Assembly: GCA_965279745.1 (NCBI GenBank)
Contig: OZ257262.1
Coordinates: forward strand, 329,201 to 361,200
Source of the DNA: Mycobacterium sp.
GTDB lineage: Bacteria > Actinomycetota > Actinomycetes > Mycobacteriales > Mycobacteriaceae
Reading direction: 5' to 3'
DNA: 32,000 nucleotides
Under the pieces are notes generated by a model. It was not told where the DNA came from, did not search any database, and saw only the letters and a program-made list of their open reading frames with translations. This document shows positions 3,762 through 32,000 of this stretch, piece by piece (the first letter of the stretch is position 1; the number at the start of each line of letters is the position of its first letter). The translations under genes and the position numbers were made by a program.

Positions 3762-3798
3762 GCGAGAGCGAAGAGGTCACATTGAGACGGAGCCGCGC

Positions 3799-6202: not shown

Positions 6203-6272
6203 GATCCCATTTGGTGGGTTCGCTCCAGTGCATGAGAACAGCGCATGGGAACATTGGTGCCGCGTCACGCAG

Positions 6273-6349: not shown

Positions 6350-6356
6350 AGCTCTG
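6341..6356. repeat. Left copy of the 16-bp direct repeat GCCCTACCAAGCTCTG flanking the IS481-family element (target-site duplication)
   Basis: An identical 16-mer occurs at 7713-7728, directly abutting both IS ends. It includes the last 9 nt of tRNA-Met. Confidence 0.8.
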
Positions 6357-8885: not shown

Positions 8886-9040
8886 GGCCACTCCGGCAGG
8901 TCCGCGCCATACGGGACAAGCCGCTGGTTATGTGTGAATTCGATACCGGAGAACCTGATCGGATTTGCTGCGCCACCCCGGTCTCGGCCAGCAGACGCTC
9001 CAACTCGGCCAGATCGCGGTTGCTTAACGATGGAGTACTG

Positions 9041-10532: not shown

Positions 10533-11777
<1,245 letters not shown>

Positions 11778-11879: not shown

Positions 11880-11915
11880 TTGGGGCTGCATTCCCGGGGT
11901 GTCAGTCGAGCCGCA

Positions 11916-12146
11916 TCATTTTCTCTCGGTGATTTTGACGGCCGTTGAGGCCGAGACTTCACGCAATCGTTCCGCGTGGGTCGGTGTGACCGCGCACGCA
12001 TATTCAGCCTGAAATCGCCGGTCCAAAGCCTGGTGTCCGAAAGACGGCAGTGCCGCTTCAAGGGCCATAGCCGCAGCGTGCCCGCGATGGGTTGTCGAAA
12101 CCAATTGGTTGGCGACACGCGGGTCATGACCCCGATGTGGCGGTTT
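11916..12146 (-). pseudogene. Possible C-terminal remnant of a tyrosine recombinase/integrase (5'-truncated)
   Basis: The minus-strand translation ..THRGHAAAMALEAALPSFGHQALDRRFQAEYACAVTPTHAERL loosely matches the integrase C-terminal pattern (H-x-x-R-H-t-a-A-t-l-a-l-e-a-G ... L-G-H ... Y-s-H-V-t-p). It is degenerate, and this is a motif-level impression only. Confidence 0.3.
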
Positions 12147-12245
12147 GGTTGCTGGCTGGTAGGTTTCCGGGTGGTTTGTTGTGTGGTGTGTGGAATGGGC
12201 TGTGTGGGTGTCTTCAGACATCTGCGTGGTTGTGTTTCTAAAACG

Positions 12246-12274
12246 CTGACACTTGTGGTGTTGGTGTGCATAAT
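12246..12274 (+). promoter_or_regulatory. Near-consensus sigma-A promoter of giant gene copy 1
   Basis: cTGACA (12246-12251), a 17-nt spacer, then cATAAT (12269-12274). The predicted 5' UTR of about 36 nt ends in the strong SD AAGGGGGAG, 5 nt before ATG 12318. Confidence 0.55.
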
Positions 12275-12317
12275 GGGCCGAACCGTGCTGAGAAAGTCCT
12301 GAGAAGGGGGAGTTGTC

Positions 12318-15300
12318 ATGAGTGTTGTTTCTGGTGTTGAGGGTGGTTCGGATTTTGTTGGTTCGGCCAGTTCAGTGCGGGTTGGGCGGGGTGTGGTGGT
12401 GCGTGCTGTGGGGGTTGGTGTGCGTGGTGGGTTGAGGTCTGTGGTGTCGGGTCCTGGGGGTTATGTGGGTCGGGTGGGTGCGTTGGCGGTGGCGTTGGGG
12501 GTGGGTGCTGCGGTGGCGGTGATGCCGGCGGTGGCGTTTGCTGATACGACGGGTTCGGGGGGGGCGTCGGCGTCGGATTCGGGGTCGTCGGGTTCGGTGA
12601 AGGGTGCGCCGGGTCATCGTTCGGGTGGTGCGGGGTCGCGGTCGGGGTCGTCTGCGGGTGGTTCGTCTGCTGGTGGTGTGGGGTCTGAGGGTGTTGTTGA
12701 GGGTGGGGTGTCGGGTTCGTCGGGTGTTGGTGGTGAGTCGGAGGGGTCTTCGGTTGGTGCGGGGTCGGGGGCGGGGTCTGTGTCGGGTGGGGTGAAGTCT
12801 GGTCGTCGGTCGGGGTTGGGTTCGGGTGGTTCGGGTTCGGGTGGTTCGGGGTTTGAGGGTGTGGCGCCGGCGGGTGCGGTGGCGGGTGCGTCGCCGGTGG
12901 TGGTGGGTTCGTCGGGTGTGGGTGGGGTGTCTGTTGTGGTGCCGGAGGTGGGTGTGCCGGTGGTGGATGAGGGTGTGGTGGTTTCGGGTTCTGATGATGT
13001 TGTGGTGGCGCCGGTGTTGTCGGTGGCGCCGCCGGTGGCGGCGGTGCCGTCGGGTGCGGTGTCGGGGTTGGGTGGTGGGTTGTTGTCGTGGCTTGGGTTT
13101 GGTGGTGGGGCTGCGGGTGGTTCGGATGGTTCGGGTGTGGGTGGGCCGTTGGGGTGGGCGTTGTTGGGGTTTGTGCGTCGTGATGGGTCGCGTGGTGGGC
13201 GTGATGTGGCGCCGCCGGCGGCGGGGGTGTCGTCGGGTGAGTCGTCGGGTGGGTTGTGGTCGGGTGCGGGTGCTGCGGTGTCGGGTGTGGGGAGTGTTCC
13301 GTCGGCGGCGTCGGTGGGGTCGTCGGTGGGTGCGGGGGCGAGTGATATTTGGTTGTTTGGGAATGGGACTGCTGAGCATCCTGATGGCGGGATTTTGATT
13401 GGTAATGGGTATTCGTGGACGGGGTATGCGGGGGTGTGCACCAGTGGTGCGTGCAATGGTGGTAATGGTGGGTTGATTGGTTCGGGTGGTGCTGGGTTTG
13501 CGGGTGGTAATGGTGGTTCGGCGGGGTGGTTTGGTTCGGGTGGTGCTGGTGGTGCTGGGACTAATGGTGTTTCTGGTGGTGCTGGTGGTAAGGGTGGTAC
13601 GGGTGGGTTGTTTATTGGTAATGGTGGTAATGGTGGTGCTGGTGGTGCTGCGAGTGCTGGTAATGGTGGTGCGGGTGGTGCTGGTGGGGATACGGGTCTG
13701 ATTTCGTGGGGTGCTGCGGGTAATGGTGGTGCTGGTGGTGTGGGTAGTGGTGGTTTTGTGGGTGGTGTTGGTGGTGCGGGTGGTTCTGCTGGGCTGATTT
13801 CGACGATTAGTTCTGGTGGTGTGGGTGGTGCTGGTGGTGCTGGTGGTACGGGTGGTGCTGGTGGTGCTGGTGGTAATGGTGGTTTGGTGGTTGGTGGTGG
13901 TGGTGCTGGTGGTACGGGTGGGGCGACCACGTTGATTGGTGGTGTGGGTGGTGATGGTGGTGATGGTGGTTCTACGGGGTTGTTGTCGGTGTCGGGTGAT
14001 GGTGGTGCGGGTGGTGCGGGTGGTGCGGGTGGTGCGGGTTTGGCGGGTGTGACGGGGACGTCGCCGGGTGGTGCGGGTGGTGTGGGTACTGCTGGTGGTA
14101 AGGGCGGTGCTGGTGGTGATGGTGGTGCTGGCAGCTTTGTGTTTGGTGCTGGTGGTGCTGGTGGTGCTGGTGGTGCTGGTGGTGTTGGTGGTGTTGGTGG
14201 TACGGGTGCTGCGGGTGCTGGTGCGACGGCTGCGGGTGCTGCTGGTGGTGTTGGTGGTGCTGGTGGTACGGGTGGTGCTGGTGGTGTTGGTGGTGTGGGT
14301 GGTAATGGTGGTGATGGGCGGATTCTGTTCTTTGTTGATTCGTCGGGTGCGGCGGGTGTGGGTGGTAAGGGTGGTTCCGGCGGTGGTGCGGGTGTTGCCG
14401 GTGATGGTGGTGTTGGTGGTGCGGGTAATGCGGGCACGCCTGATGGTGGTGCGGGTGGTGCTGGTGGTAATCCGGGTAAGGCCGGTGTGGGTGGTGCCGG
14501 TGGTGCGGGTGGTTCGGGTAATGGTGGTGGTGGTGCTGGTGCTTCGGGTGCTGCGGGTTCGGCGGCGACCTCGGGGGGTAATGGCGGTAATGGTGGGGCT
14601 GGGTTCAGTGCTGTGGTGGCGGGTGCTGGCGGTAATGGTGGTGCTGGCGGTGCTGGTGGCGCGGTGGGTAATGGCGGTAATGGTGGTGCGGCGGGTGCGG
14701 GTGCTGGGGGTACGGCGGGCACTTCTGGTGTGACGGGCACTGATGGTGGTTCTGGTTTCGCTGGTGGTGTGGGTGGTGCTGGTGGTGCTGGTGGTAGCAC
14801 GTCGGGTAATGGTGGTAATGGTGGTGCGGGTGGTGCCGGTGGTGCTGGTGGTGCGGGTGGTAGTGGTTCTGATGGTGCTGCCGGGGTGGGTTCGGGTGCT
14901 TCGGGTAGTGATGGTGGTGATGGTGGTTCTGGTGGTAAGGGCGGTAAGGGTGGTGCCGGCGGTAACGCGGGTAAGGCGTTGGGGGCTGGTTCGGCTGGGG
15001 TGAATGGCACTGGTGGTGCTGGTGGTACGGGTGGTAGTGCGGGTAATGCGGGTAATGGTGGTACGGGTGCGGCGGGGACGAACATCATCACTCCTGATGG
15101 TGGTGCTGGTGGTAATGGTGGTGAGTTGGGTACTGCGGGTACTGGTGGTGCTGGTGGTGCGGCGGGTACTGGTGGTTCTGGTGGTGCGACCGGTAGTGAT
15201 GGCGGTAATGGCGGGTCGGGTTCTGGTGGTAATGGTGGTGCGGGTGGTGCCGGCTGGAATTCCACGGTGACCAATGTGGCTGGCGGTAATGGTGGTGCGG

Positions 15301-16967
15301 GTGGTAACGCGGGCACGGTCGGTAATGGTGGTGCTGGTGGTGCGGGTGGTAACGGGTCGACCGGGACTGCTGGTGGTGCTGGTGGTGCGGGTGTTGGTGG
15401 CGGTAATGGTGGTGCGGGGTCCACCGCGGGTAATGGTGGTGCTGGTGGTGCTGGTGGCACGTTGGTGGGTAATGGTGGTGCTGGTGGTGTTGGTGGTGTT
15501 GGTGGTGCGGGTGGTAATGGTGGTGCTGGTGGTGATGGTGCTACTGGTGGTGCTGGTGTGGCTGGTGGTACTGGTGGTGATGGTGGTACCGGGGGTAGTG
15601 GTGCTAAGGGTGGCCAGGGCGGTGCGGGTGGTGCTGCGGGTGGTAAGGGCAGTGTCGGACAGAACGGTAATGGTGGTGCTGGTGGCGCCGGGGGTGATGC
15701 GGGTAACGCCGGCAATGGCGGTAATGGTGGTGCCGGGACTGCGTTGAACCCGGATGGTGGTGCTGGTGGTAATGGCGGCAATGTCGGGTTCGCTGGTACT
15801 GGTGGTGCTGGTGGTGCGGCGGGTAGTGGTGGCACTGGTGGGGTGAGTGGGGTTACCGGTGGTGATGGTGGTTCTGCTGGTGGCGGTAATGGCGGTAATG
15901 GTGGTGCGGGGTGGAACAGCCTTACTGCGTCGAAGGCTGGCGGTAAGGGTGGTGCTGGTGGTGCTGGTGGTTTCGTCGGTAATGGTGGTGTTGGTGGTTC
16001 TGGCGGTAACGGTGCGAGTGGTCAGGCCGGTGTTGATGGTGGTGTCGGGGTTGATGGGACCAGTGGTGGTAATGCCAGCGCTGGTGGTGCCGGTGGTGCG
16101 GGCGGTGCTGGTGGGGCGATAGCGGGTTCTGGTGGTGCTGGTGGTTCTGGCGGTAATGGTGGTTCTGGTGGTGCGGGCGGTAATGGTGGTAACGGTGCTG
16201 CTGGTGGTGCTGGTTTGGCTGGTGGGACTGGTGGTAATGGCGGTACGGGTGGTAACGGTGCTGCTGGTGGTGCTGGTGGTGCTGGTGGTAAGGCGGTCGG
16301 TATTGGTTCTGCCGGTAGTGATGGCAGTGGTGGTGCGGGTGGCACGGGTGGTAATGCCGGTAATGCCGGTAATGGTGGTACCGGTGGTGCGGGTGTGTCG
16401 TCGGTGACTCCGAATGGTGGTGCTGGTGGTAATGGTGGTGAGCGTGGCGCGGCGGGTGCTGGCGCTGCCGGTGGTGCCGCGGGTGGTCCTGGTGGTACGA
16501 CGGGTGCTAGTGGTGTTGGTGGTGCTGCGGCGTCGGGTGGCAATGGTGGTAATGGTGGTGCTGGCTGGAACAGCAATGATCCGTCGAAGGCTGGCGGTAA
16601 GGGTGGTGCTGGTGGTAACGCGGGTTCGGTCGGTGATGGTGGTGCTGGTGGTGCCGGCGGTAATGGTGCTTCGGGTGCGGTAGGGGCTAATGCCGGTCCG
16701 GGTGGCAATGGTGGTCTTGGTGGTGCGGGCAGTGTTGGTGGTGCCGGTGGTGCTGGCGGTAACGGCGGGTCGTCGAAGGGTGACGGCGGTGCTGGTGGTG
16801 TCGGTGGTGTGGGTGGTGCCGGCGGTAACGGCGGTAACGGCGGTAACGGCGCTACCGGGGTTGGTGGTGGTGCGTCGGTGGTGATGGCGGTAATGGTGGC
16901 ACTGGTGGTGCTGGTGCTGCTGGTGGTAAGGGCGGCACGCACGGGTTCGCGCTCGGTGGTGGTGTGA
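12318..16967 (+). CDS. Giant secreted PGRS-like glycine-rich repeat protein, 5' segment (ORF ends artificially because of a 1-nt deletion at 16876)
   Basis: Supported by the promoter, the SD and ATG 12318. The signal peptide is ..[25 protein letters not shown]|D (cleavage after residue 75). It is followed by a Ser/Gly/Val-rich linker of about 260 aa, then the PGRS-type onset [43 protein letters not shown] and GGAGGxGG repeats. The last 31 residues (..[17 protein letters not shown]..) are out-of-frame read-through. Confidence 0.8.
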
Positions 16968-19900
16968 ATGGTGCTGATGGCAATGGTGGTACTGGTGGCA
17001 CGGGTGGTAATGCTGGTGATGCCGGTAATGGTGGTGCTGGTGCTGGTGGTACTTCGGGTTCGCCGGATGGTGGTACCGGTGGTGATGGTGGTGATCGGGG
17101 TACTGCCGGTGTTGGTGGTGCCGGGGGTGCTGCTGGAGGGACTGCGGGTTCTGCCGGTGTGACAGGCGCTGATGGTTCTGGGGCGTCGGGTGGTAATGGT
17201 GGTGCTGGTGGTGCCGGTTGGACCAGCACGAGTGGTGCTACCGCTGGTGGTAATGGTGGTGCTGGTGGTAACGCGGGTACCTATGGCAATGGTGGTGCTG
17301 GCGGTGCTGGTGGTACTGGTGCTGGGGGTACTGCGGGGATTGCGGGGGCGACTGCTGCTGCCGGTGGTGCCGGTAATAACGGCGGCACGGGTGGTAATGG
17401 CAGTGCTGGTGGTGCTGGTGGTGCTGGTGGTAAGGGCGGTTCGGTCGCCGGTAATGGTGGTGCTGGTGGTGTTGGTGGTGCCGGTGGCTCGGGTGGTACC
17501 GGTGGCGCCGGGTCTGATGGTGGGCTCGGGGTGATCACGATCAACGCTGGTGCTGGTGGTAACGGTGGTACGGGTGGTACTGGTGGTGCTGGTGCTTCTG
17601 GTGGTGCTGGTGGTGCTGGTGGTGCTGCGGGTGGTGTTGGTTCCTCGGGTGCGGATGCTGATGGTGGTGCTGGTGGTTCCGGTGGTAATGCCGGTAATGC
17701 CGGTAATGGTGGTACGGGTGCTCAGGGTGATTTGAACTTGGGTCCTGCTAATGGTGGTGCTGGCGGTAATGGTGGTACGTGGGGCACTGCGGGTGCTGGT
17801 GCTGCTGGCGGTGCCGCGGGTGGGGCGGGTGCTAGCGCGGGGTCGAGTGGTTCTTCGGGTACGGCGGCTACTGCTGGTGGTAACGGTGGTGATGGTGGTG
17901 CCGGCTGGAACAGCACGAACCCGGCGTTCGGTGGCGGTAATGGTGGTGCCGGCGGTAATGCCGGTTCGTTGGGTACTGGTGGTAATGGTGGTACTGGTGG
18001 TCAAGGGTTCACTGGTGTTACCGGTGCGGTAGGGGCCACTGGTGGTGGTGCTGGTGGTAACGGTGGTACCGGTACCGCGGGTGGTAACGGTGGTGCTGGC
18101 GGTAATGGTGGTGTGTTCGGTGGTAACGCCGGTAATGGTGGTAATGCCGGTAATGGTGGTACCGGTGGTGCTGGCGGTAATGGTGGTACCGGTGCTTCCG
18201 GTGGTGCTGGTGGTACTGCCGGTAATGGTGGTAGTGGTGGCGCCGGGGGCAGTGGTGGTGCTGGTGGTAAGGCGTTGGTGGCTGGGTTCACCCATGGCAA
18301 TGGCGGTAATGGTGCTACCGGTGGTACTGGGGGTAACGCCGGTAATGGTGGTACTGGTGGTGGTGGTACTGCGGGCACACCTAATGGTGGTGATGGTGGT
18401 GCTGGTGGTACGCGTGGTGGTGCTGGTGCTTCGGGTGCTGGTGGTGCCGCGGGTGGTACGGGTGCGTCGGCGGGGTCGGCGGGGACCTCGGGTGCCGCGG
18501 GGACCACTGGCGGTAATGGTGGTGCTGGTGGTGCGGGCTGGAACAGCGACTCGAGTAGCGCTGCTGGTGGTGCCGGCGGTAAGGGTGGTGCCGCGGGTGC
18601 TATCGGTGATGGTGGTGCTGGTGGTGCTGGTGGTAATGGTTTTGCTGGTGCTGCTGGTGGTAACGGCTCTACTGGCGGGTACGGGGTTTCTGGTGGAGAC
18701 GCCACGTCTAATGGTGGTTGGGGCACTGCTGGTGGTGCTGGTGGTGCTGGTGGTACGGGCGGGACGACCTCGGGTAAGGGTGGTTCCGGTGGTGCTGGTG
18801 GTGTTGGTGGTGTTGGTGGTACCGGCGGTAACGGCGGTAACGGTGGTACCGGGACGACCGCGGGCAGTGGTTCCGGCGGTAATGGTGGTACCGGCAGTGC
18901 TGGTGGTACCGGTGGTACCGGTGGTGCTGGGGGTGCTGCGGGTAAGGCTGGCGGCACGGGTGGTACGACCGGTGCTAATGGCAGTGGCGGTAATGGTGGT
19001 ACTGGTGGTGCTGCGGGTAACGCCGGTAATGGTGGTGCTGGTGCTGGCGGGACGGCGGGCACACCGAATGGTGGCGATGGTGGTGAGGGCGGTAACCGTG
19101 GTGCCGCCGGTAATGGTGGTACCGGGGGCTTGGCTGGTGGCACGACCGGCGGTGCGGCGGCGGGGACCACGGGGAGCACTGGTGGTGTCGGGGCGTTGGG
19201 TGCCGGCGGTAATGGTGGTTCTGGTGGTGACGGCTTTGATGGGTCGGGTACCACGGGCGCTAACGGCGGTAATGGCGGTAAGGGTGGTGCGGCTGGTTCG
19301 TTCGGTAATGGTGGTGCCGGTGGTAAGGGCGGTAATGGTGGCGGGGGGACCGCGGGGACTGCGGGGACCACGGGCAGCACTGATGGCGTTACTGGTCAGG
19401 CTGGTGGTGTTGGTGGTGCTGGTGGTGCTGGTGGTAGGGGCGGTTTGGTCCAGGGTGATGGTGGTGCCGGCGGTAAGGGCGGTAACGGTGCTACCGGTGG
19501 TACCGGTGGTGACGGCCATGATGGTGCGGCCGGGGTTACCGGGGTAAATAACGGTGTTGGTGGTGCTGGTGGTACTGGCGGTAATGGTGGTGCTGGTGGT
19601 GCCGGTGGTAAGGGTGGTAAGGGTGGTACGGCGGCGTCGGGTACTACCGGTGCTAATGGCAGTGGCGGTAACGGTGCTACTGGTGGTAACGCGGGTAACG
19701 CCGGTAACGGTGGGGCCGGTGCTACCGGGACGGTGGCTAACCCGAATGGCGGTAATGGTGGTACCGGCGGTACTCGGGGTACTGCTGGTGGTGCTGGTGC
19801 TGCTGGTGCTTCGGGGACCACTCCGGGTGGCGCGTCGGGGTCGACCGGGACTGCCGGGACTACTGGTGCTGGGGCCACGTTCGGTGGTAACGGCGGTAAT

Positions 19901-20000
19901 GGTGGTAACGGCTACAACGACCTGACCACCGGTGCCAGCGCCGGTAACGGCGGTAACGGTGGTAACGCCGGGTTGATCGGTAACGGCGGTAATGGTGGTA
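14600..20000 (+). repeat. Array of at least 8 higher-order modules of about 630-700 bp (about 220 aa) inside the giant gene
   Basis: An anchor motif GG(N/D)GG(A/N)G(W/F/Y)(N/T/D)S recurs near 14603, 15255, 15912, 16566, 17219, 17906, 18539, 19236 and 19914. Each is preceded by [10 protein letters not shown]..(T/N)P(D/N)GGxGGxGGxxGxAG and followed by ..[26 protein letters not shown]. Confidence 0.75.
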
Positions 20001-22975
20001 ACGGTGGCGCGGCGGATGCCCAGACCGGTACCAGCACCGGGGTGATCAGGACTGGCGGTAATGGTGGTGCTGGTGGTGCTGGTGGTGCCACGTCGGGTAA
20101 CGGTGGTGCCGGTGGTGCTGGTGGCAACGCGCATACCCGCGATTCGGGTTCGCGGGCGATCGGTGGTGCTGGCGGTGCTGGTGGCGCGTCGATCGGGGCC
20201 ACGGGCTCGAGCAGTGCCGCGGGTAATGGTGGTGCCGGTGGTAACGGGAACTCTGAACAGGATCACGGCTTCGGTGGTACCGGTGGTGCTGGCGGGTCGG
20301 TGGCGTTCGCTGACGGTAATGGCGGTAATGGTGGTGCCGGTGGTGGTGCTACGGGTGCCGGTATTGCTGCTGGTGGTGCTGGTGGTGCTGGTGGTGCTGT
20401 CGGTTCTGGTGTCGGTAACGGCGGTAATGGTGGTGCTGGTGGTGGCGCCTCTGGTGACACGTTCGTCAGCTCGACCGGTGGTGCTGGTGGTGCCGGTGGT
20501 ACCGGCGGTGCTGGTGGTGGTGATGGTGGTGCTGGCGCGGTCGGTGGTGACGCGACCTCGGTCAATACCATTGCTACCGGTGGTGCTGGTGGTAAGGGCG
20601 GATTCGCGGCGGGCACGGTCGGTAACGGTGGTGCTGGTGGTGCCGGTGGTAGCGGTGCGGCCGGGGCCTCTGGTGATACCGCCACGGGCGGTCAGGGTGG
20701 TGCCGGTGGTGGCGCGTCTGCCGGTAACGGTGGTGCTGGTGGTGCCGGTGGCGGCGCCTCAGTCGGCGCGACGGGCTTCGCTGCCTTTGGTGGTGCCGGC
20801 GGTGCCGGTGGTGCTGGTGGCGGTGTCGGTAACGGTGGTGCCGGCGGTAAGGGCGGCAACGCACAAGGCATCGGATTCGTTGGAACCTTCGATGCGCAGG
20901 CCGGTGTCGGTGGTATCGGTGGGGCCGCGGGGGTGACCGGTACCGGTGGCCAGGGCGGCGACGGCGGTGACGCCGTGTCCACAGGCACCGGCATCGTCAA
21001 CACCGGCGCTGTTGGTGGTAACGCCGGTAAGGGCGGCACCGGCGGATCCACCAGTGGCAACGGCGGCGCCGGCGGCAAGGGCGGCGCAGCCACCGCGGCG
21101 GATAGCTTCGCCAAGGGCGGTGCGGCCGGTAATGGTGGTAACGCTGTCAACGCCGGCAACGGTGGTGTCGGCGGTCGCGGCGGCGACGCCACGATGACAG
21201 GCGCCGGTTCCACGGCTAACGGTGGTGTTGGTGGTCAAGGTGGTGCGGCGGGCAGCCTCAGCGGTAACGGCGGTGCTGGTGGCCGCGGCGGCGACGCGTC
21301 CGCGACCGGGGCAGGTTCGACCGCCACCGGTGGTGCCGGTGGTACTGGTGCTAACGCCGCCGTCGAAGGTGCCGGTGCTGGTGGCGCCGGCGGTGACGCC
21401 ACCTCAGCGGTCGGCAATGCTCGCGGTGGTGTTGGTGGTAAGGGTGGTGACGGTGCGCTCGGCACCGCAGGTACCACCGGCGGAGTCGGGGGTGCGGGCA
21501 CGACCGGTGCGGCTGGTGGGGCTGGTGGCAGCGCTACCGCAGGCGGCACGGGTAGCGCAATCGGCGGTATCGGCGGCACCGGCGGTGCCGGTGGTGGCGG
21601 TGGGCTCGGCGGCAATGGCAGTGCCGGGACCACCGGTGCTGCAGGCAATACCGCTGGCGCTGGTGGCACCGCTGGTAACGGTGGTAGCGGTGGTGCCGGT
21701 GGAGTTGCAACCACCAGCGGTACCGGGACCGCGGTCGGCGGCAAGGGTGGGCTCGCCGGTGCCGGTGGTACAGGCGGTAAAGGCGGAGTCGGCGGCACCG
21801 GCGGAACCGGGGGTGCCACAGGCGGTGCGGGCGGTGCTGGTGGTGTCGGCGGCAACGCCGGCATCGGTGGTGCCGGTGGCGCCGCAGTCGCTACCGGCGT
21901 CGGAACAATAGCTATCGGCGGAGAAGGCGGCGGTGCTGGCGCGCAAGGCGCCGGTGGCGTTGGTGGTACCGGTGGTGTTGGTGGTACCGGGGCCGCGCTG
22001 GGCGCCGGGGGCAAGGGCGGCAAGGGCGGCGCCGGCGGTAACAACGGCAACGGAGGTGTTGGTGGTGTTGGTGGCACCGGGACCTCTAGCGACGGCAATG
22101 CGATCGGTGGTACTGGCGGCAATATCGCCGTTGCTTCGGTTGCTGCTGCGGCGGGTGGCAAGGGTGGTGCTGGTGGCGCCACCGGTGCCGGTGGCGTGAC
22201 CGGCGGCAACGGCGGCGACGGGGGCAACGGCGGCAAGGCCGGTACAGGTTTTGTCGGTGGGACCGGCGGCAGCGCCTTCTCTAGCGGAACAAACGCTTCT
22301 GCGGTCGGCGGCGTCGGTGGGTCGACCATCAGTTCGACTACGGGTGGAGCAGGTGGTGCTGGAGGTGCGGCCGCGGGTGGTGGTGGAACCACCGGCGCGA
22401 CGGGCGGCACCGGTAGTGCCGGTATCGGTGGTGCTGGCGGCAACGGCGGTAACGCGACCTCCACCAACGGAGCCGCCTTGGGCGGTAACGGCAACATTGG
22501 AGGCGATGCTGGCAGCGGTACTGGTGGTGTTGCGGGGACGGCTGGTAATGGCGGTAGCGCCACGGCCGGCGGAACCAATGCCGGAGCCACTGGTGGGAAG
22601 GGCGGCGTCGGCGGCTCAGGCGCTCCTGCTAACGCGTTCGGTGCTCAGGGTGGCATTGGTGGCAGTGCGACTTCCACCAATGGATTCGCTGTGGGCGGTA
22701 CCGGTGGTCGCGGTGGCGATACATCCAGTGTGATCGGGGGTACCGGTGGTAAGGGCGGCGACGCCGTGGCTGGCGGAACCAACTCTCCGGCCACCGGTGG
22801 TGCCGGCGGTGCCGGCGGCAACGCCACCGTGGCTGGCGGTACGGGCGGTAACGGCGGTAACGGCGGCGACGCCTCGTCGGCCGCCGGAATCCCGACCGGC
22901 GGCAACGGCGGCGGCGGCGGCACTGGTATCGCCCCCGGGGTCAACGGCACCCCAGGCACCCACGGCAACCCCTAA
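16964..22975 (+). CDS. 3' segment of the same giant glycine-rich gene (a continuation, not an independent gene)
   Basis: The GTG at 16964 is an internal Val codon in copy 2, where the frame runs straight through (..[42 protein letters not shown]..). There is no RBS. The same repeat architecture continues. The C-terminal part of about 900 aa switches to GGxGGxGGDA/S-type repeats. The stop at 22973-22975 is followed by a strong hairpin. Confidence 0.8.
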
Positions 22976-23009
22976 GCACGGGGTAGTCGATACGCACAAC
23001 TGACAACGA

Positions 23010-23050
23010 CGGCGGGGATCCGCTCCTTTCACAGGAGAGGACCCCCGCCG
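23010..23050 (+). terminator. Intrinsic terminator-like hairpin downstream of giant gene copy 1
   Basis: In CGGCGGGGATCCgCTCCTttcacAGGAGagGGACCCCCGCCG the outer arms match at 11 of 12 positions, and there is an inner 5-bp stem. It is followed by ctgttgtg and begins 35 nt after the stop codon. Confidence 0.55.
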
Positions 23051-23140
23051 CTGTTGTGCGCTTGACGCGGTGCAGTGCGAGTTGGGTGAGGTTTGTGGTG
23101 CTGCGATAGGTCAGAGGTCGATCTTCCGTAGGACCGTCGT

Positions 23141-23590
23141 CTACTCGTTGGCCAAGCCCGCGACGCCGGCCAAGGACTGTCTCAACTTCGGTTGACTCGC
23201 GGTGTGAAGCTCAGGCCGCGTTTGCGGCAGTGCGAAGCCGCTGAGCGAAATTGGCTGCGTCGATGCGAATGGACCACTGACCAGATCCGGCTCTGATTCC
23301 GCGTCCGAGCAGCTCTTCGGCGATGTAGCTGTACCCGTAGGTTGGGTCGTCGCCGTGAGTGTCGATCGCGGCATGGATGGGTGCGTGTCGTCCGGGTTCT
23401 GTTGTTGATGCCGAGCTCCCTTCGATGCGCTCAGGATCAATGCCGCAAGGAAGCAGTTGCTCATCGCCGTCGTCACTCTGAACGAATTCGCCTACCACCG
23501 GCCCCATGACCGCGCCGAGCAATTGGGCCTGTTGACGACGGTTGAGAACCCGGCCAGTCGGGACGGTTGAAAAGTCGGCCTGACCTGTTC
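23141..23590 (-). pseudogene. Degenerate IS3-family transposase (OrfB N-terminal region) fragment
   Basis: The minus-strand translation ..HAPIHAAIDTHGDDPTYGYSYIAEELLGRGIRAGS resembles the conserved IS3 OrfB segment (..IH..DP.FGYR.I..EL...G...). In a shifted frame, PDLVSGPFASTQP resembles DLV.R.F.A..PN. There are multiple frameshifts and deletions, and it is truncated by the adjacent IS remnant. Confidence 0.35.
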
Positions 23591-24201
23591 CCACTTTTGA
23601 CCTGTCCCGGCTTCCCGGACGGCTGGTGTTGGGTGTTCACGCGGCCGTGTTGGTGGTCGTGTGGTGTCTTTCGTAGTCGATAGGGCTGCAGTAGTCCAGA
23701 GCGCTGTGACGGCGGACGGGTTCGATCTGCAGGGAGCCAAAGAACGATTCGATCATCGCGTTGTCAAAGGCGGAGGCCACCTGGCCCATAGAAGCCAGGA
23801 GGCCTGCCTCGCGGAGCCGGTGGCCGAACAGCCAACTGGTACTGGGTTCCGCGGTCGGAGTGCACGATCGTGCCGACGGGTTTGCGGCGTAGTCGGGCCA
23901 TGTCGAGAGCGTCGGCGAACAGTTCGGTCCGCAAGTGATCGGCGATCGACCAGCCGACCACCCGGCGGTAGACCGTAGGTCTGCCGTGAGCCGGTATGGA
24001 TCGCCACGACGGTGTTGGCTAACTCGGCGTCCACACGATCGCTGGTCCTTGGCAACCCGAGCGATCGGCTTCTCCCGCAGCCGGGCCAACTCCACCGCAC
24101 GACGGCGAAACTCCTCCGAATAAGCAGCGGTCATCGTTTCTCTGACTCCTTCCGTTGAGACGATCATCGCCTCAACCGCGGTGTCTGGGAAAGTGGGAAC
24201 A
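23586..24201 (-). mobile_element. Internally deleted IS3-family element (616 bp) that retains both terminal inverted repeats
   Basis: The termini TGTTCCCACTTT (23586-23597) and AAAGTGGGAACA (24190-24201) form a perfect 12-bp inverted repeat. The [10 protein letters not shown] and ATG 24134 open the orfA N-terminus MTAAYSEEFRRRAVELARLREKPIARVAKD. It is then fused, through deletions and frame changes, to OrfB pieces RVDAELANTVVAIHTGSRQTYG, VVGWSIADHLRTELFADALDMA..VGTIVHSDRGTQY and ..MGQVASAFDNAMIESFFGSLQIE..RRHSALDYCSPIDYE. No flanking target duplication is seen. Confidence 0.65.
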
Positions 24202-24480
24202 GGGGTCGCCCGCCTCAATGCCGCCCACAACGCCGGGCGCCTGCCGGCCGAACTGGTCACGCTGCGTCGCGTCGGATCGCTAGTCGGGACGAGGTCGGCT
24301 ACATCCCGTTCAAGCAGGACGCCGCGAACCGGGGGCAGACCCTTGCCCTCGGCCAGAGCAGACAACACCGCACAATAATCCACGACCACGTGCCCACTTT
24401 TCACCGTCGCTTCCGGGCCTAGGTTTCGACCATCGTCAACAGGGCCGCGCGGTCTACCGTCATCTACTCGTGCAGCAGAC
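24202..24480 (+). pseudogene. IS21-family IstB-like ATPase fragment (C-terminal part, frameshifted)
   Basis: The plus-strand translation ARLNAAHNAGRLPAELVTLRR.. then, after a -1 shift, ..DEVGYIPFKQDAAN matches the IstB pattern (L..L..A...G.L...L..L.. LLIIDE.GY.P.....A). Downstream it is degenerate. It begins exactly at the IS3-remnant boundary. Confidence 0.4.
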
Positions 24481-24684
24481 ACACTCCAGTCGTCGTTTGT
24501 GGTTGAGATTTTGAGAGTCGACCTGGGACGGAGTGGTCGGTGGAGGATTCGTTGGCGTGGTTGGGTGGGTCCTCGTGTGCCTGTTGGGTTGCTGGCTGGT
24601 AGGTTTCCGGGTGGTTTGTTGTGTGGTGTGTGGAATGGGCTGTGTGGGTGTCTTCAGACATCTGCGTGGTGGCGATTCGACACG

Positions 24685-24713
24685 CTGACACTTGTGGTGT
24701 TGGTGTGCATAAT
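24685..24713 (+). promoter_or_regulatory. Promoter of giant gene copy 2 (same -35/-10 as copy 1)
   Basis: cTGACA 24685-24690, a 17-nt spacer, then cATAAT 24708-24713. The SD and ATG 24757 are the same as in copy 1. The sequence immediately upstream of -35 differs from copy 1. Confidence 0.5.
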
Positions 24714-24756
24714 GGGCCTAACCGTGCTGAGAAAGTCCTGAGAAGGGGGAGTTGTC

Positions 24757-27700
24757 ATGAGTGTTGTTTCTGGTGTTGAGGGTGGTTCGGATTTTGTTGG
24801 TTCGGCCAGTTCAGTGCGGGTTGGGCGGGGTGTGGTGGTGCGTGCTGTGGGGGTTGGTGTGCGTGGTGGGTTGAGGTCTGTGGTGTCGGGTCCTGGGGGT
24901 TATGTGGGTCGGGTGGGTGCGTTGGCGGTGGCGTTGGGGGTGGGTGCTGCGGTGGCGGTGATGCCGGCGGTGGCGTTTGCTGATACGACGGGTTCGGGGG
25001 GGGGCGTCGGCGTCGGATTCGGGGTCGTCGGGTTCGGTGAAGGGTGCGCCGGGTCATCGTTCGGGTGGTGCGGGGTCGCGGTCGGGGTCGTCTGCGGGTG
25101 GTTCGTCTGCTGGTGGTGTGGGGTCTGAGGGTGTTGTTGAGGGTGGGGTGTCGGGTTCGTCGGGTGTTGGTGGTGAGTCGGAGGGGTCTTCGGTTGGTGC
25201 GGGGTCGGGGGCGGGGTCTGTGTCGGGTGGGGTGAAGTCTGGTCGTCGGTCGGGGTTGGGTTCGGGTGGTTCGGGTTCGGGTGGTTCGGGGTTTGAGGGT
25301 GTGGCGCCGGCGGGTGCGGTGGCGGGTGCGTCGCCGGTGGTGGTGGGTTCGTCGGGTGTGGGTGGGGTGTCTGTTGTGGTGCCGGAGGTGGGTGTGCCGG
25401 TGGTGGATGAGGGTGTGGTGGTTTCGGGTTCTGATGATGTTGTGGTGGCGCCGGTGTTGTCGGTGGCGCCGCCGGTGGCGGCGGTGCCGTCGGGTGCGGT
25501 GTCGGGGTTGGGTGGTGGGTTGTTGTCGTGGCTTGGGTTTGGTGGTGGGGCTGCGGGTGGTTCGGATGGTTCGGGTGTGGGTGGGCCGTTGGGGTGGGCG
25601 TTGTTGGGGTTTGTGCGTCGTGATGGGTCGCGTGGTGGGCGTGATGTGGCGCCGCCGGCGGCGGGGGTGTCGTCGGGTGAGTCGTCGGGTGGGTTGTGGT
25701 CGGGTGCGGGTGCTGCGGTGTCGGGTGTGGGGAGTGTTCCGTCGGCGGCGTCGGTGGGGTCGTCGGTGGGTGCGGGGGCGAGTGATATTTGGTTGTTTGG
25801 GAATGGGACTGCTGAGCATCCTGATGGCGGGATTTTGATTGGTAATGGGTATTCGTGGACGGGGTATGCGGGGGTGTGCACCAGTGGTGCGTGCAATGGT
25901 GGTAATGGTGGGTTGATTGGTTCGGGTGGTGCTGGGTTTGCGGGTGGTAATGGTGGTTCGGCGGGGTGGTTTGGTTCGGGTGGTGCTGGTGGTGCTGGGA
26001 CTAATGGTGTTTCTGGTGGTGCTGGTGGTAAGGGTGGTACGGGTGGGTTGTTTATTGGTAATGGTGGTAATGGTGGTGCTGGTGGTGCTGCGAGTGCTGG
26101 TAATGGTGGTGCGGGTGGTGCTGGTGGGGATACGGGTCTGATTTCGTGGGGTGCTGCGGGTAATGGTGGTGCTGGTGGTGTGGGTAGTGGTGGTTTTGTG
26201 GGTGGTGTTGGTGGTGCGGGTGGTTCTGCTGGGCTGATTTCGACGATTAGTTCTGGTGGTGTGGGTGGTGCTGGTGGTGCTGGTGGTACGGGTGGTGCTG
26301 GTGGTGCTGGTGGTAATGGTGGTTTGGTGGTTGGTGGTGGTGGTGCTGGTGGTACGGGTGGGGCGACCACGTTGATTGGTGGTGTGGGTGGTGATGGTGG
26401 TGATGGTGGTTCTACGGGGTTGTTGTCGGTGTCGGGTGATGGTGGTGCGGGTGGTGCGGGTGGTGCGGGTGGTGCGGGTTTGGCGGGTGTGACGGGGACG
26501 TCGCCGGGTGGTGCGGGTGGTGTGGGTACTGCTGGTGGTAAGGGCGGTGCTGGTGGTGATGGTGGTGCTGGCAGCTTTGTGTTTGGTGCTGGTGGTGCTG
26601 GTGGTGCTGGTGGTGCTGGTGGTGTTGGTGGTGTTGGTGGTACGGGTGCTGCGGGTGCTGGTGCGACGGCTGCGGGTGCTGCTGGTGGTGTTGGTGGTGC
26701 TGGTGGTACGGGTGGTGCTGGTGGTGTTGGTGGTGTGGGTGGTAATGGTGGTGATGGGCGGATTCTGTTCTTTGTTGATTCGTCGGGTGCGGCGGGTGTG
26801 GGTGGTAAGGGTGGTTCCGGCGGTGGTGCGGGTGTTGCCGGTGATGGTGGTGTTGGTGGTGCGGGTAATGCGGGCACGCCTGATGGTGGTGCGGGTGGTG
26901 CTGGTGGTAATCCGGGTAAGGCCGGTGTGGGTGGTGCCGGTGGTGCGGGTGGTTCGGGTAATGGTGGTGGTGGTGCTGGTGCTTCGGGTGCTGCGGGTTC
27001 GGCGGCGACCTCGGGGGGTAATGGCGGTAATGGTGGGGCTGGGTTCAGTGCTGTGGTGGCGGGTGCTGGCGGTAATGGTGGTGCTGGCGGTGCTGGTGGC
27101 GCGGTGGGTAATGGCGGTAATGGTGGTGCGGCGGGTGCGGGTGCTGGGGGTACGGCGGGCACTTCTGGTGTGACGGGCACTGATGGTGGTTCTGGTTTCG
27201 CTGGTGGTGTGGGTGGTGCTGGTGGTGCTGGTGGTAGCACGTCGGGTAATGGTGGTAATGGTGGTGCGGGTGGTGCCGGTGGTGCTGGTGGTGCGGGTGG
27301 TAGTGGTTCTGATGGTGCTGCCGGGGTGGGTTCGGGTGCTTCGGGTAGTGATGGTGGTGATGGTGGTTCTGGTGGTAAGGGCGGTAAGGGTGGTGCCGGC
27401 GGTAACGCGGGTAAGGCGTTGGGGGCTGGTTCGGCTGGGGTGAATGGCACTGGTGGTGCTGGTGGTACGGGTGGTAGTGCGGGTAATGCGGGTAATGGTG
27501 GTACGGGTGCGGCGGGGACGAACATCATCACTCCTGATGGTGGTGCTGGTGGTAATGGTGGTGAGTTGGGTACTGCGGGTACTGGTGGTGCTGGTGGTGC
27601 GGCGGGTACTGGTGGTTCTGGTGGTGCGACCGGTAGTGATGGCGGTAATGGCGGGTCGGGTTCTGGTGGTAATGGTGGTGCGGGTGGTGCCGGCTGGAAT

Positions 27701-30700
27701 TCCACGGTGACCAATGTGGCTGGCGGTAATGGTGGTGCGGGTGGTAACGCGGGCACGGTCGGTAATGGTGGTGCTGGTGGTGCGGGTGGTAACGGGTCGA
27801 CCGGGACTGCTGGTGGTGCTGGTGGTGCGGGTGTTGGTGGCGGTAATGGTGGTGCGGGGTCCACCGCGGGTAATGGTGGTGCTGGTGGTGCTGGTGGCAC
27901 GTTGGTGGGTAATGGTGGTGCTGGTGGTGTTGGTGGTGTTGGTGGTGCGGGTGGTAATGGTGGTGCTGGTGGTGATGGTGCTACTGGTGGTGCTGGTGTG
28001 GCTGGTGGTACTGGTGGTGATGGTGGTACCGGGGGTAGTGGTGCTAAGGGTGGCCAGGGCGGTGCGGGTGGTGCTGCGGGTGGTAAGGGCAGTGTCGGAC
28101 AGAACGGTAATGGTGGTGCTGGTGGCGCCGGGGGTGATGCGGGTAACGCCGGCAATGGCGGTAATGGTGGTGCCGGGACTGCGTTGAACCCGGATGGTGG
28201 TGCTGGTGGTAATGGCGGCAATGTCGGGTTCGCTGGTACTGGTGGTGCTGGTGGTGCGGCGGGTAGTGGTGGCACTGGTGGGGTGAGTGGGGTTACCGGT
28301 GGTGATGGTGGTTCTGCTGGTGGCGGTAATGGCGGTAATGGTGGTGCGGGGTGGAACAGCCTTACTGCGTCGAAGGCTGGCGGTAAGGGTGGTGCTGGTG
28401 GTGCTGGTGGTTTCGTCGGTAATGGTGGTGTTGGTGGTTCTGGCGGTAACGGTGCGAGTGGTCAGGCCGGTGTTGATGGTGGTGTCGGGGTTGATGGGAC
28501 CAGTGGTGGTAATGCCAGCGCTGGTGGTGCCGGTGGTGCGGGCGGTGCTGGTGGGGCGATAGCGGGTTCTGGTGGTGCTGGTGGTTCTGGCGGTAATGGT
28601 GGTTCTGGTGGTGCGGGCGGTAATGGTGGTAACGGTGCTGCTGGTGGTGCTGGTTTGGCTGGTGGGACTGGTGGTAATGGCGGTACGGGTGGTAACGGTG
28701 CTGCTGGTGGTGCTGGTGGTGCTGGTGGTAAGGCGGTCGGTATTGGTTCTGCCGGTAGTGATGGCAGTGGTGGTGCGGGTGGCACGGGTGGTAATGCCGG
28801 TAATGCCGGTAATGGTGGTACCGGTGGTGCGGGTGTGTCGTCGGTGACTCCGAATGGTGGTGCTGGTGGTAATGGTGGTGAGCGTGGCGCGGCGGGTGCT
28901 GGCGCTGCCGGTGGTGCCGCGGGTGGTCCTGGTGGTACGACGGGTGCTAGTGGTGTTGGTGGTGCTGCGGCGTCGGGTGGCAATGGTGGTAATGGTGGTG
29001 CTGGCTGGAACAGCAATGATCCGTCGAAGGCTGGCGGTAAGGGTGGTGCTGGTGGTAACGCGGGTTCGGTCGGTGATGGTGGTGCTGGTGGTGCCGGCGG
29101 TAATGGTGCTTCGGGTGCGGTAGGGGCTAATGCCGGTCCGGGTGGCAATGGTGGTCTTGGTGGTGCGGGCAGTGTTGGTGGTGCCGGTGGTGCTGGCGGT
29201 AACGGCGGGTCGTCGAAGGGTGACGGCGGTGCTGGTGGTGTCGGTGGTGTGGGTGGTGCCGGCGGTAACGGCGGTAACGGCGGTAACGGCGCTACCGGGG
29301 TTGGTGGTGGTGCGTCCGGTGGTGATGGCGGTAATGGTGGCACTGGTGGTGCTGGTGCTGCTGGTGGTAAGGGCGGCACGCACGGGTTCGCGCTCGGTGG
29401 TGGTGTGAATGGTGCTGATGGCAATGGTGGTACTGGTGGCACGGGTGGTAATGCTGGTGATGCCGGTAATGGTGGTGCTGGTGCTGGTGGTACTTCGGGT
29501 TCGCCGGATGGTGGTACCGGTGGTGATGGTGGTGATCGGGGTACTGCCGGTGTTGGTGGTGCCGGGGGTGCTGCTGGAGGGACTGCGGGTTCTGCCGGTG
29601 TGACAGGCGCTGATGGTTCTGGGGCGTCGGGTGGTAATGGTGGTGCTGGTGGTGCCGGTTGGACCAGCACGAGTGGTGCTACCGCTGGTGGTAATGGTGG
29701 TGCTGGTGGTAACGCGGGTACCTATGGCAATGGTGGTGCTGGCGGTGCTGGTGGTACTGGTGCTGGGGGTACTGCGGGGATTGCGGGGGCGACTGCTGCT
29801 GCCGGTGGTGCCGGTAATAACGGCGGCACGGGTGGTAATGGCAGTGCTGGTGGTGCTGGTGGTGCTGGTGGTAAGGGCGGTTCGGTCGCCGGTAATGGTG
29901 GTGCTGGTGGTGTTGGTGGTGCCGGTGGCTCGGGTGGTACCGGTGGCGCCGGGTCTGATGGTGGGCTCGGGGTGATCACGATCAACGCTGGTGCTGGTGG
30001 TAACGGTGGTACGGGTGGTACTGGTGGTGCTGGTGCTTCTGGTGGTGCTGGTGGTGCTGGTGGTGCTGCGGGTGGTGTTGGTTCCTCGGGTGCGGATGCT
30101 GATGGTGGTGCTGGTGGTTCCGGTGGTAATGCCGGTAATGCCGGTAATGGTGGTACGGGTGCTCAGGGTGATTTGAACTTGGGTCCTGCTAATGGTGGTG
30201 CTGGCGGTAATGGTGGTACGTGGGGCACTGCGGGTGCTGGTGCTGCTGGCGGTGCCGCGGGTGGGGCGGGTGCTAGCGCGGGGTCGAGTGGTTCTTCGGG
30301 TACGGCGGCTACTGCTGGTGGTAACGGTGGTGATGGTGGTGCCGGCTGGAACAGCACGAACCCGGCGTTCGGTGGCGGTAATGGTGGTGCCGGCGGTAAT
30401 GCCGGTTCGTTGGGTACTGGTGGTAATGGTGGTACTGGTGGTCAAGGGTTCACTGGTGTTACCGGTGCGGTAGGGGCCACTGGTGGTGGTGCTGGTGGTA
30501 ACGGTGGTACCGGTACCGCGGGTGGTAACGGTGGTGCTGGCGGTAATGGTGGTGTGTTCGGTGGTAACGCCGGTAATGGTGGTAATGCCGGTAATGGTGG
30601 TACCGGTGGTGCTGGCGGTAATGGTGGTACCGGTGCTTCCGGTGGTGCTGGTGGTACTGCCGGTAATGGTGGTAGTGGTGGCGCCGGGGGCAGTGGTGGT

Positions 30701-32000
30701 GCTGGTGGTAAGGCGTTGGTGGCTGGGTTCACCCATGGCAATGGCGGTAATGGTGCTACCGGTGGTACTGGGGGTAACGCCGGTAATGGTGGTACTGGTG
30801 GTGGTGGTACTGCGGGCACACCTAATGGTGGTGATGGTGGTGCTGGTGGTACGCGTGGTGGTGCTGGTGCTTCGGGTGCTGGTGGTGCCGCGGGTGGTAC
30901 GGGTGCGTCGGCGGGGTCGGCGGGGACCTCGGGTGCCGCGGGGACCACTGGCGGTAATGGTGGTGCTGGTGGTGCGGGCTGGAACAGCGACTCGAGTAGC
31001 GCTGCTGGTGGTGCCGGCGGTAAGGGTGGTGCCGCGGGTGCTATCGGTGATGGTGGTGCTGGTGGTGCTGGTGGTAATGGTTTTGCTGGTGCTGCTGGTG
31101 GTAACGGCTCTACTGGCGGGTACGGGGTTTCTGGTGGAGACGCCACGTCTAATGGTGGTTGGGGCACTGCTGGTGGTGCTGGTGGTGCTGGTGGTACGGG
31201 CGGGACGACCTCGGGTAAGGGTGGTTCCGGTGGTGCTGGTGGTGTTGGTGGTGTTGGTGGTACCGGCGGTAACGGCGGTAACGGTGGTACCGGGACGACC
31301 GCGGGCAGTGGTTCCGGCGGTAATGGTGGTACCGGCAGTGCTGGTGGTACCGGTGGTACCGGTGGTGCTGGGGGTGCTGCGGGTAAGGCTGGCGGCACGG
31401 GTGGTACGACCGGTGCTAATGGCAGTGGCGGTAATGGTGGTACTGGTGGTGCTGCGGGTAACGCCGGTAATGGTGGTGCTGGTGCTGGCGGGACGGCGGG
31501 CACACCGAATGGTGGCGATGGTGGTGAGGGCGGTAACCGTGGTGCCGCCGGTAATGGTGGTACCGGGGGCTTGGCTGGTGGCACGACCGGCGGTGCGGCG
31601 GCGGGGACCACGGGGAGCACTGGTGGTGTCGGGGCGTTGGGTGCCGGCGGTAATGGTGGTTCTGGTGGTGACGGCTTTGATGGGTCGGGTACCACGGGCG
31701 CTAACGGCGGTAATGGCGGTAAGGGTGGTGCGGCTGGTTCGTTCGGTAATGGTGGTGCCGGTGGTAAGGGCGGTAATGGTGGCGGGGGGACCGCGGGGAC
31801 TGCGGGGACCACGGGCAGCACTGATGGCGTTACTGGTCAGGCTGGTGGTGTTGGTGGTGCTGGTGGTGCTGGTGGTAGGGGCGGTTTGGTCCAGGGTGAT
31901 GGTGGTGCCGGCGGTAAGGGCGGTAACGGTGCTACCGGTGGTACCGGTGGTGACGGCCATGATGGTGCGGCCGGGGTTACCGGGGTAAATAACGGTGTTG
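24757..32000 (+). pseudogene. Second copy of the giant PGRS-like glycine-rich gene, frameshifted at a G9 tract (24996-25004) and 3'-partial at the window edge
   Basis: ATG 24757 encodes the same 82 N-terminal residues as copy 1. The extra G then gives 41 aberrant residues and a stop at 25126-25128 (ORF 24757..25128). The Gly-rich frame is open from the tract to position 32000 and matches copy 1. It includes an intact reading through 29316-29317, the site where copy 1 is broken. Confidence 0.8.

Follow-up and report, generated by a model that had tools for sequence, protein, structure and literature searches.

The stretch of DNA studied here, 32,000 nucleotides (nt) of a Mycobacterium sp. assembly (GCA_965279745.1, contig OZ257262.1, positions 329,201 to 361,200 of the forward strand) and hereafter called the window, carries two near-identical direct copies of a giant glycine-rich gene. 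With one base restored in the first copy, this gene encodes a protein of 3,552 amino acids (aa), and at its 5′ end almost every codon ends in G or T, a restriction that fades gradually towards the 3′ end. The near-confinement of third positions to G and T, with its 5′-to-3′ gradient, is new and is the most unusual feature of the locus, and it was missed in an earlier note on the same DNA. New as well is the product, a PGRS-type protein with a Sec-type signal and without a PE domain, from an environmental mycobacterium of soil type. As a duplication the pair is ordinary: two near-identical PGRS-type genes amid remnants of insertion sequences (IS). Taking the evidence together, we judge it somewhat better than an even bet that the pair arose by a recent direct segmental duplication, with the gene body possibly homogenised by conversion, and that a strand-specific pressure is mainly behind the codon skew.

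The repeat pair and its origin

Alignment by blastn joined 24576-32000 to 12136-19559 in a single match of 7,426 columns (99.838% identity, 9 mismatches, 3 gap openings), and a global alignment of 12147-19559 with 24587-32000 gave exactly four differences. Both methods agree with the earlier note on the colinear regions, the four listed differences and the shifting offsets; the offset runs 12440, 12439, 12440 and 12441 because of the deletion in one substituted patch and two single-base insertions or deletions (indels). Both copies have the same orientation (plus strand), with 12,440 bp between their starts. The features of the pair, open reading frames (ORFs) and the single-nucleotide polymorphism (SNP) included, are as follows.

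12147-19559, plus strand: repeat copy 1, the part with a visible partner; its gene runs on to 22975
24587-32000, plus strand: repeat copy 2, cut by the window end
12231-12242 (partner 24671-24681), plus strand: substituted patch, six substitutions and a 1-nt deletion, abutting the -35 hexamer on its upstream side
12246-12274 (identical at 24685-24713), plus strand: promoter-like site CTGACA-17-CATAAT, 10 of 12 matches, 0.1-0.3 expected
12280 (g) and 24719 (t), plus strand: SNP, six bases past the -10 hexamer and near the expected transcription start
12318-22975, plus strand: giant gene, copy 1 (ATG at 12318, stop at 22975), 10,658 nt, present as ORF 12318-16967 and ORF 16964-22975
24757-32000, plus strand: giant gene, copy 2; the frame that opens at the ATG closes at 25128, and the shifted frame is open from 25007 to the window end
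12557-12564 (G8, TCG GGG GGG GCG) and 24996-25004 (G9), plus strand: G tract just past the signal-peptide cleavage site
16875-16876, plus strand: C missing in copy 1 at codon 1520 and present at 29316 in copy 2 (TCGGTG versus TCCGGTG)
23003-23056, plus strand: strong hairpin past the copy-1 stop codon (-45.5 kcal/mol, z -5.5)

The differences are unevenly spread. Eight differing bases (the patch and the SNP, which include all substitutions between the copies) lie in the first 134 bp of the repeat, and the next 7,279 bp hold no substitution and only the two single-base indels. Between the start of the repeat at 12147 and the patch there are 84 identical bases. Upstream of 12147 and 24587 we found no homology, as plain and purine/pyrimidine-collapsed local alignments scored no better than shuffles, and the boundary is therefore sharp; the 11 bases at 12136-12146 show only a partial likeness between the copies. 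The possibility that the GT-rich segment 24495-24586 is a hypermutated version of the copy-1 flank was ruled out, its alignments likewise not rising above those of shuffled sequence. Neither inverted repeats nor further long direct repeats were found in the window.

As the earlier note had remarked, the repeats are themselves internally repetitive: a 9-nt unit, GGTGGTGCT, recurs about 460 times in the gene, and a super-period of about 660 nt is superimposed on it. Because these intragenic copies are only about 70% identical in nucleotides, the 99.8% match between the two loci is a true duplication and not an effect of low complexity.

The plus strand carries the expected start signals. The ATG at 12318 has a Shine-Dalgarno-like GGGGGAG 6 nt upstream, CTGACA-17-CATAAT is the sole promoter-like site in the region upstream of the giant gene, and the hairpin at 23003-23056 is likely the terminator of copy 1. 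Each duplicated unit would carry, besides the 10.66-kb gene, a promoter-like site, a ribosome-binding site and a terminator hairpin of its own. A hairpin followed by GTGTTTCT occupies 12198-12231, shortly before the promoter-like site of copy 1, and the copy-2 patch removes this T-rich tail; a scan for hairpins with T-rich tails counted no more sites than in shuffled sequence. A minus-strand ORF of 2,401 aa (24755-31960) was rejected as a gene, given that start signals, signal peptide and homologues all belong to the plus strand. Antisense stop-free ORFs also occur at 12614-15835 and 16022-20266; these frames, of up to 2,401 aa and rich in Thr, Pro and Arg, are long because the sense strand is nearly free of A. 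Shadow ORFs and split genes are to be expected from gene callers at this locus.

Restoring one C after 16875 turns copy 1 into a single ORF of 3,552 codons. With the C missing, translation would stop at 16967 and give a product of at most 1,549 aa; in copy 2, with G9, the frame that opens at the ATG stops at 25128 after 123 aa. As sequenced, neither copy codes for the full protein, since each has its own frameshift. Both indels had been listed in the earlier note, which overlooked this consequence. The G8/G9 tract is the only homopolymer of at least 7 bases in the 32-kb window, and it is not conserved: relatives have at most 6 G at the site, for which reason a conserved G tract was rejected. 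It looks more like a side effect of the codon bias than a switch that evolved as such. Single-base slips in homopolymers are the commonest consensus error of long reads, and near-identical repeats are hard to polish. In Mycobacterium tuberculosis, one-base homopolymer slips are documented as reversible phase variation (PMC10334774). The window resembles the cases of the M. tuberculosis complex in having a G run early in the coding sequence whose length change of one base switches the frame, and differs from them in showing two states only, in two paralogues, at a tract that relatives do not keep. We consider it about equally likely that the frameshifts are real or consensus errors, and a phase-variable or decaying gene pair is plausible.

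Near-identity of this kind would stem either from a recent duplication or from later conversion of the gene bodies, and all four differences fall at potentially functional sites: the patch against the -35 hexamer, the SNP at about +1, the G8/G9 tract behind the signal peptide and the deletion at codon 1520. We favour a recent duplication; the earlier note's reading, very recent duplication or ongoing conversion, holds. The duplication is probably tandem, in a mobile-element-rich stretch downstream of a tRNA-Met gene; "tandem" is a deduction because the right end of the duplicated unit lies past the window end. The abrupt start of homology, followed by the 84 identical bases, looks like the end-point of a young duplication. 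Other observations weigh against this account. Neutral decay would not be expected to place both substitution events within 134 bp of the start and leave the remaining 7,279 bp free of them; clustering of this kind is more suggestive of gene-body conversion or of selection acting on the promoter. The frameshifts could be polishing errors, near-identical repeats being the hardest to polish. As far as the sequence goes, one genome may hold both copies.

The serious rival is that the two genes are older paralogues under concerted evolution, in which the bodies were homogenised, a conversion boundary lies near the promoter, the patch and the SNP are what remains of an old divergence, and the frameshifts arose after conversion. 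That two events should both fall within 134 bp of the 5′ end at random has a chance of about 3e-4, and the left flanks of the copies are unrelated, as this explanation would have it. Near-identical PGRS paralogues are also familiar in mycobacteria, and the two very similar PE_PGRS1 copies of M. marinum (PMC11939664) count on the same side. However, homology begins abruptly at 12147 with 84 identical bases and no gradual decay, and the modules inside the gene are just about 61% (aa) or 70% (nt) alike, so that homogenisation is not generally strong; we hold concerted evolution to be possible but doubtful. Each genome could instead have a single copy, if long reads were mis-joined through the 10.7-kb repeat or two strains were merged into a chimera. 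Single-base indels account for two of the four differences, one falling in a homopolymer, and such indels are typical consensus errors; the relatives that we recovered are almost all uncultured or metagenomic. Yet the unique spacer 22976-24586 (1.6 kb) is joined to a gene copy at both sides, a 12-nt patch and a SNP, neither of them a typical read error, set the two 5′ ends apart, and the flanking genes that were tested are intact (the TldD gene is of full length and the Pfam domains of flanking ORFs are unbroken), for which reason the consensus is generally good. An assembly artefact or chimera is in our view quite improbable. The earlier note had argued for two real loci from the unrelated left flanks; the flanks are indeed unrelated, but a tandem duplication, real or artefactual, gives the same pattern, and the distinct 5′ ends together with the unique spacer make a better argument.

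Two 10.7-kb direct repeats lying 12.4 kb apart are an assembly hazard and a hot spot for deletion or amplification; the earlier suggestion that the repeats are a substrate for such events holds, with unequal crossing-over as the way to read it.

Third codon positions of the giant gene

Over the first 1.8 kb of the giant gene, the frequencies of C and A at third positions (C3 and A3; T3 and G3 are used likewise) are 0.01 and 0.00. Among the first 380 codons just 6 have C or A as their last base, and there is no such codon from 20 to 356. Along the gene, C3 climbs from 0.01 through 0.12-0.20 and 0.26-0.30 to about 0.5 in the last 2 kb (Spearman rho with position 0.95, p 1e-18), and the coding strand goes from a G+T content of 0.80-0.84 at the start of the gene to one of about 0.55 at its end, with 0.45-0.58 in the flanks. 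Individual codons follow the same course: in the first 380 codons Asp is always GAT and Asn always AAT (100% each, versus 37% and 29% in the flanking genes, whose GGC/GCC usage is ordinary), and across the nine tandem modules of the gene AAT declines from 0.85 to 0.39 as GCC rises from 0.10 to 0.32. The skew also reaches the non-coding segment 12147-12215.

None of 82 relatives, with C3 between 0.22 and 0.66, comes near the window gene, and in their first 300 codons they show a milder bias of the same sign. Four metagenomic relatives (L052, positions 1-7293; L021, positions 1-4059; L038; L020) have C3 of 0.12-0.18 over these codons, and in L052 T3 runs down from 0.26 to 0.08. Another relative, L083, is T3-rich in its 3′ half only. 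The direction of change was read from third positions at residues identical between the window gene and its closest relative, L008. Where the relative has C3, the window gene has T3 in 51 cases, G3 in 17 and C3 in 3; where it has A3, the window gene has G3 in 17 cases and T3 in 7; T-to-C and G-to-A changes number zero. First and second positions, with 44 A-to-G and 13 G-to-A differences, drift likewise, which is why the linker of the window protein is rich in Gly, Val and Ser and that of its relatives in Asp, Glu, Pro and Thr.

Two further properties of the strand are by-products of the skew. Canonical G-quadruplex motifs number 12 in copy 1 (12449-22017) and 11 in the visible part of copy 2 (24888-31815), all on the non-template strand; 5 of the 12 in copy 1 lie in the first kb, and the flanks have 0 on both strands. 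The octamer GCTGGTGG, the Chi site of Escherichia coli, occurs 202 times, in every case on the plus strand and within one or other gene copy, and this abundance is a by-product of GCT GGT GG(T) codons.

As to the cause, we lean towards mutation pressure as the main one, with selection contributing. The pressure would be a long-acting, strand-specific change of C to T and of A to G on the non-template strand. It would come from the single-stranded state that transcription imposes on a G-rich gene, one that looks liable to form R-loops and G-quadruplexes; selection against self-complementarity in a gene made of GGN/GCN repeats may help. To our knowledge, the skew in the window is far more complete than any transcription-linked asymmetry in bacteria. 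Single-strand deamination leaves gradients of C-to-T and A-to-G changes that are strongest at third positions and graded by exposure (PMC3269015; PMC10030826). The window gene matches such strand-asymmetric deamination, known from the mitochondrial heavy strand and in transcription-linked form, in the depletion of C and A, the enrichment of T and G, the third-position bias and the grading, and departs from it in being confined to a single gene of a bacterial chromosome. Several points speak for mutation pressure: transitions dominate, reverse changes at third positions are lacking, nonsynonymous sites are involved, the skew spreads into non-coding 12147-12215, and it is most complete in the non-repetitive 5′ part of the gene.

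Against a mainly mutational origin, the promoter and 5′ untranslated region (12216-12317) are unskewed (G+T 0.60-0.66), and yet 12147-12215, which lies upstream of the predicted promoter, carries the skew. Over the first 380 codons, G-ending four-fold codons of Ala, Ser and Val are more frequent than pure transitions from flank usage would make them. The T3-rich block of L083, confined to the 3′ half, fits poorly too, and the skew leaves the first 2 kb with 30-40% less predicted RNA folding than synonymous recodings have. These same points feed the alternative that selection and not mutation is at work, C and A being avoided to remove the self-pairing of GGC/GCC and so to stabilise the repeat DNA and keep the messenger RNA translatable. 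A recoding of the first 2 kb to flank usage folds at -141 to -151 kcal/mol per 300 nt, against -86 to -103 for the actual sequence; transitions and transversions towards G/T are both present; the promoter and 5′ untranslated region are spared; and the L083 block lies far from the 5′ end. Selection of this sort would not, however, readily give a bias that is fullest in the non-repetitive signal-peptide and linker region, that runs into non-coding 12147-12215 and that alters amino-acid composition (a Val/Gly/Ser linker versus Asp/Glu/Pro/Thr in relatives). Past about 4 kb, moreover, actual and recoded folding energies are equal although T3 is still 0.5-0.6, and relatives of similar size manage with C-ending codons. 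We put selection as the principal cause appreciably below even, as a contender that nevertheless deserves to be taken seriously.

A more radical possibility within the mutational account is local, strand-specific hypermutation, in which stable R-loops or G-quadruplexes would expose the non-template strand, deamination would drive free positions to T or G, most fully near the 5′ end, the linker would be remodelled towards Gly, Val and Ser, and the slippery G8 tract would be created and now act as an on/off switch. We think this unlikely; if true, it would be a bacterial counterpart of immunoglobulin switch regions or of the mitochondrial heavy strand. Two other candidates were rejected as unlikely. 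Translational selection does not agree with GAT and AAT at 100% in the first 380 codons when the flanking genes use them at 29-37%, and GGT and GGC are read by the same tRNA, which counts against it as well. A horizontal origin of the skew does not agree with its being graded inside one gene, and we know of no genome with only G and T at third positions. With mutation pressure still the cause that we prefer, the graded loss of C3 and A3 offers a clean natural case in which to ask whether transcription-linked single-strand damage, or selection against self-pairing, can reshape the composition of a bacterial gene and its protein.

The giant protein

PGRS-type proteins are among the least understood surface proteins of mycobacteria, and nearly all work on them concerns pathogens, in which a PE domain is part of the protein. 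The protein read from the repaired copy 1 is 47% Gly and 17% Ala, with 6-7% each of Thr, Ser and Asn, and is built of the following parts; a Gly/Ser/Val-rich linker of about 260 residues lies between the signal peptide and the conserved N-terminal domain.

12318-12542, plus strand: long signal peptide, residues 1-75 (...AVMPAVAFA/DTT), with a hydrophobic core and an AxA site kept in relatives
13338-13757, plus strand: conserved N-terminal domain, residues 341-480, with two Cys and GGNGG repeats, modelled as a polyglycine-II (PGII) bundle
14595-20593, plus strand: nine tandem modules of about 220 aa, residues 760-2759, with a mean pairwise identity of 61% and a GW(N/T)S-type anchor in each
20594-22975, plus strand: C-terminal region of about 800 residues, with another, shorter glycine-rich repeat, codons near the normal C-ending usage and no recognised domain

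The Sec-type features of the signal peptide (positive N-region, hydrophobic core, AxA), judged by eye, are conserved in more than 20 homologues, and the 50-aa extension ahead of the hydrophobic core is unusual. Scans of residues 1-394 against Pfam and NCBIfam gave no match to the PE domain (PF00934, about 100 aa, which directs ESX-5 secretion) or to any other family, and GRPLI, the motif that links PE to PGRS, is absent from the translation, where a different conserved motif precedes the repeats. Membership of PE_PGRS was ruled out, since neither the PE domain nor GRPLI is there. The long Gly-Gly-Ala and Gly-Gly-Asn arrays that define PGRS are present, with 47% Gly and the GGTGGTGCT period behind them, and GGAGG and GGNGG motifs run all along the translation.

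An AlphaFold2 model of residues 301-820 was built on an alignment of 20 homologues, and a second model covered two modules; large parts of both have low confidence, so the fold is to be read as a prediction. Residues 341-480 reached values of the predicted local distance difference test (pLDDT) mostly between 84 and 96, and the two-module model 70-88 over about half its length, in both cases with zero helix or strand. Searched against the PDB with Foldseek, the model of residues 301-820 found only antifreeze proteins made of bundles of polyproline-II (PPII) or PGII helices, with 7jjv at E 7e-3 and probability 0.97, and 2pne at a target template-modelling score of 0.69 and a root-mean-square deviation of 2.3 Å. 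The two-module model returned the same matches (7jjv at E 1.5e-4 and 5.7e-4), the probability of 7jjv being 0.97-1.0 across models. With these springtail and snow-flea proteins the window protein shares antiparallel PPII/PGII bundles of Gly-x-x triplets; they are, on the other side, small (81-126 aa) proteins of arthropods, and neither common descent nor ice binding is supported for the window protein. A PGII-sandwich architecture, in which antiparallel helices pack in two layers, has been proposed for PGRS domains (PMC9436101). The giant protein is of PGRS type and not a PE_PGRS, and its GGxGGx triplets are predicted from these models to pack as bundles of polyglycine-II helices. Sec export and a location in the cell envelope or at the surface are inferred from sequence and family, and the most likely role is that of a large, flat, repetitive envelope or surface protein.

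Compared with the PE_PGRS proteins of M. tuberculosis and M. marinum (PMC9436101), the window protein is alike in its long GGA/GGN arrays with interspersed aromatic and hydrophobic residues, in its predicted PGII bundles and in belonging to a multi-copy set of highly similar paralogues prone to indels. It is unlike them in carrying a long Sec-type signal peptide where they have a PE domain and an ESX-type N-terminus, in its 3,552 aa, in its Mycolicibacterium-like host, in the lack of any Pfam or NCBIfam match and in the GGT/GCT codons of its gene. The locus as a whole supports the idea that the PGRS fold is older than, and independent of, the PE/ESX-5 route. PE_PGRS genes are rich in GGC and GCC. 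M. smegmatis and related Mycolicibacterium have PGRS-domain proteins with uncertain N-termini, according to a review (PMC11939664), and these are, by their description, similar to the window protein in combining a PGRS-type domain with a non-pathogenic, rapidly growing host and no secure PE domain; the family of the window differs from them in its conserved signal peptide and N-terminal domain, and in coming mostly from uncultured Mycobacteriaceae.

Host, relatives and neighbouring genes

The host is, on the evidence of its sequences, an undescribed rapid-growing mycobacterium of the Mycolicibacterium clade. At the protein level, the TldD encoded at 2232-3761 shares 92% identity with a metagenome sequence, 89% with its counterpart in Mycobacterium sp. 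NBC_00419 and 85-86% with those of many Mycolicibacterium species, and the flanks have 60-66% G+C.

Homologues of the N-terminal 394 aa number 48 in 5.8 billion proteins. The few with names are "hypothetical proteins" of Mycobacteriaceae, and the best is 58% identical over about one third of the query. Loci coding for relatives were found in species-representative genomes (7, all distant) and in metagenomes (77). Two of these relatives, L001 and L005, from metagenome-assembled genomes (MAGs) of uncultured Mycobacterium, have in common with the window protein the signal peptide, the linker motifs LLSWLG and RR, the conserved N-terminal domain and the glycine-rich body. Unlike it, they are half its size (1,827-1,912 aa), single-copy within 20 kb and encoded with normal C-ending codons, and they have a YVTN-like end: by eye, their C-terminal ~350 residues look like YVTN beta-propeller repeats ("...YVTN...VSVIDT..."), which the window protein does not have.

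The genes around the pair, beginning with the tRNA gene, are these.

6273-6349: tRNA-Met (CAT), the sole Rfam match
6440-7573: IS481-family transposase gene, directly after tRNA-Met
7964-8368: PIN/VapC gene
8822-9976: esterase-like gene
10557-11777: S-adenosylmethionine (SAM) methyltransferase gene, the last before the duplicated genes
23640-24170, minus strand: degraded IS3-family transposase in several frames (Pfam rve 8.2e-7; NCBIfam IS3 4.6e-8)
24180-24340, plus strand: frameshifted IstB-like (IS21 helper) fragment with DEVGYIPF; weak match to NF005098 (E 0.003 and 0.012) in two adjacent frames at consecutive profile positions

The setting looks like a tRNA-adjacent genomic island of slightly lower G+C. 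The IS debris that the earlier note had placed between the copies is there, as IS3 fragments and, more weakly, as the IstB-like fragment (NF005098), whereas the integrase-like remnant that it had placed left of copy 1 (about 11900-12146, minus strand) drew zero profile matches. No composite transposon was recognised in the window, the flanking remnants being of different families (IS481 versus IS3 and IS21 fragments).

On the practical side, the automatic type detection of MAFFT takes the Gly/Ala/Thr/Asn-rich modules for nucleotide sequence, and an amino-acid flag or the addition of ordinary sequences is required. In the synteny comparison with relatives, one conserved neighbour was found: a 141-aa protein encoded at 10094-10519 in the window, with a 70% identical counterpart at 4614-5024 in L006, an unrelated MAG, where it lies just upstream of a homologue of the giant gene.

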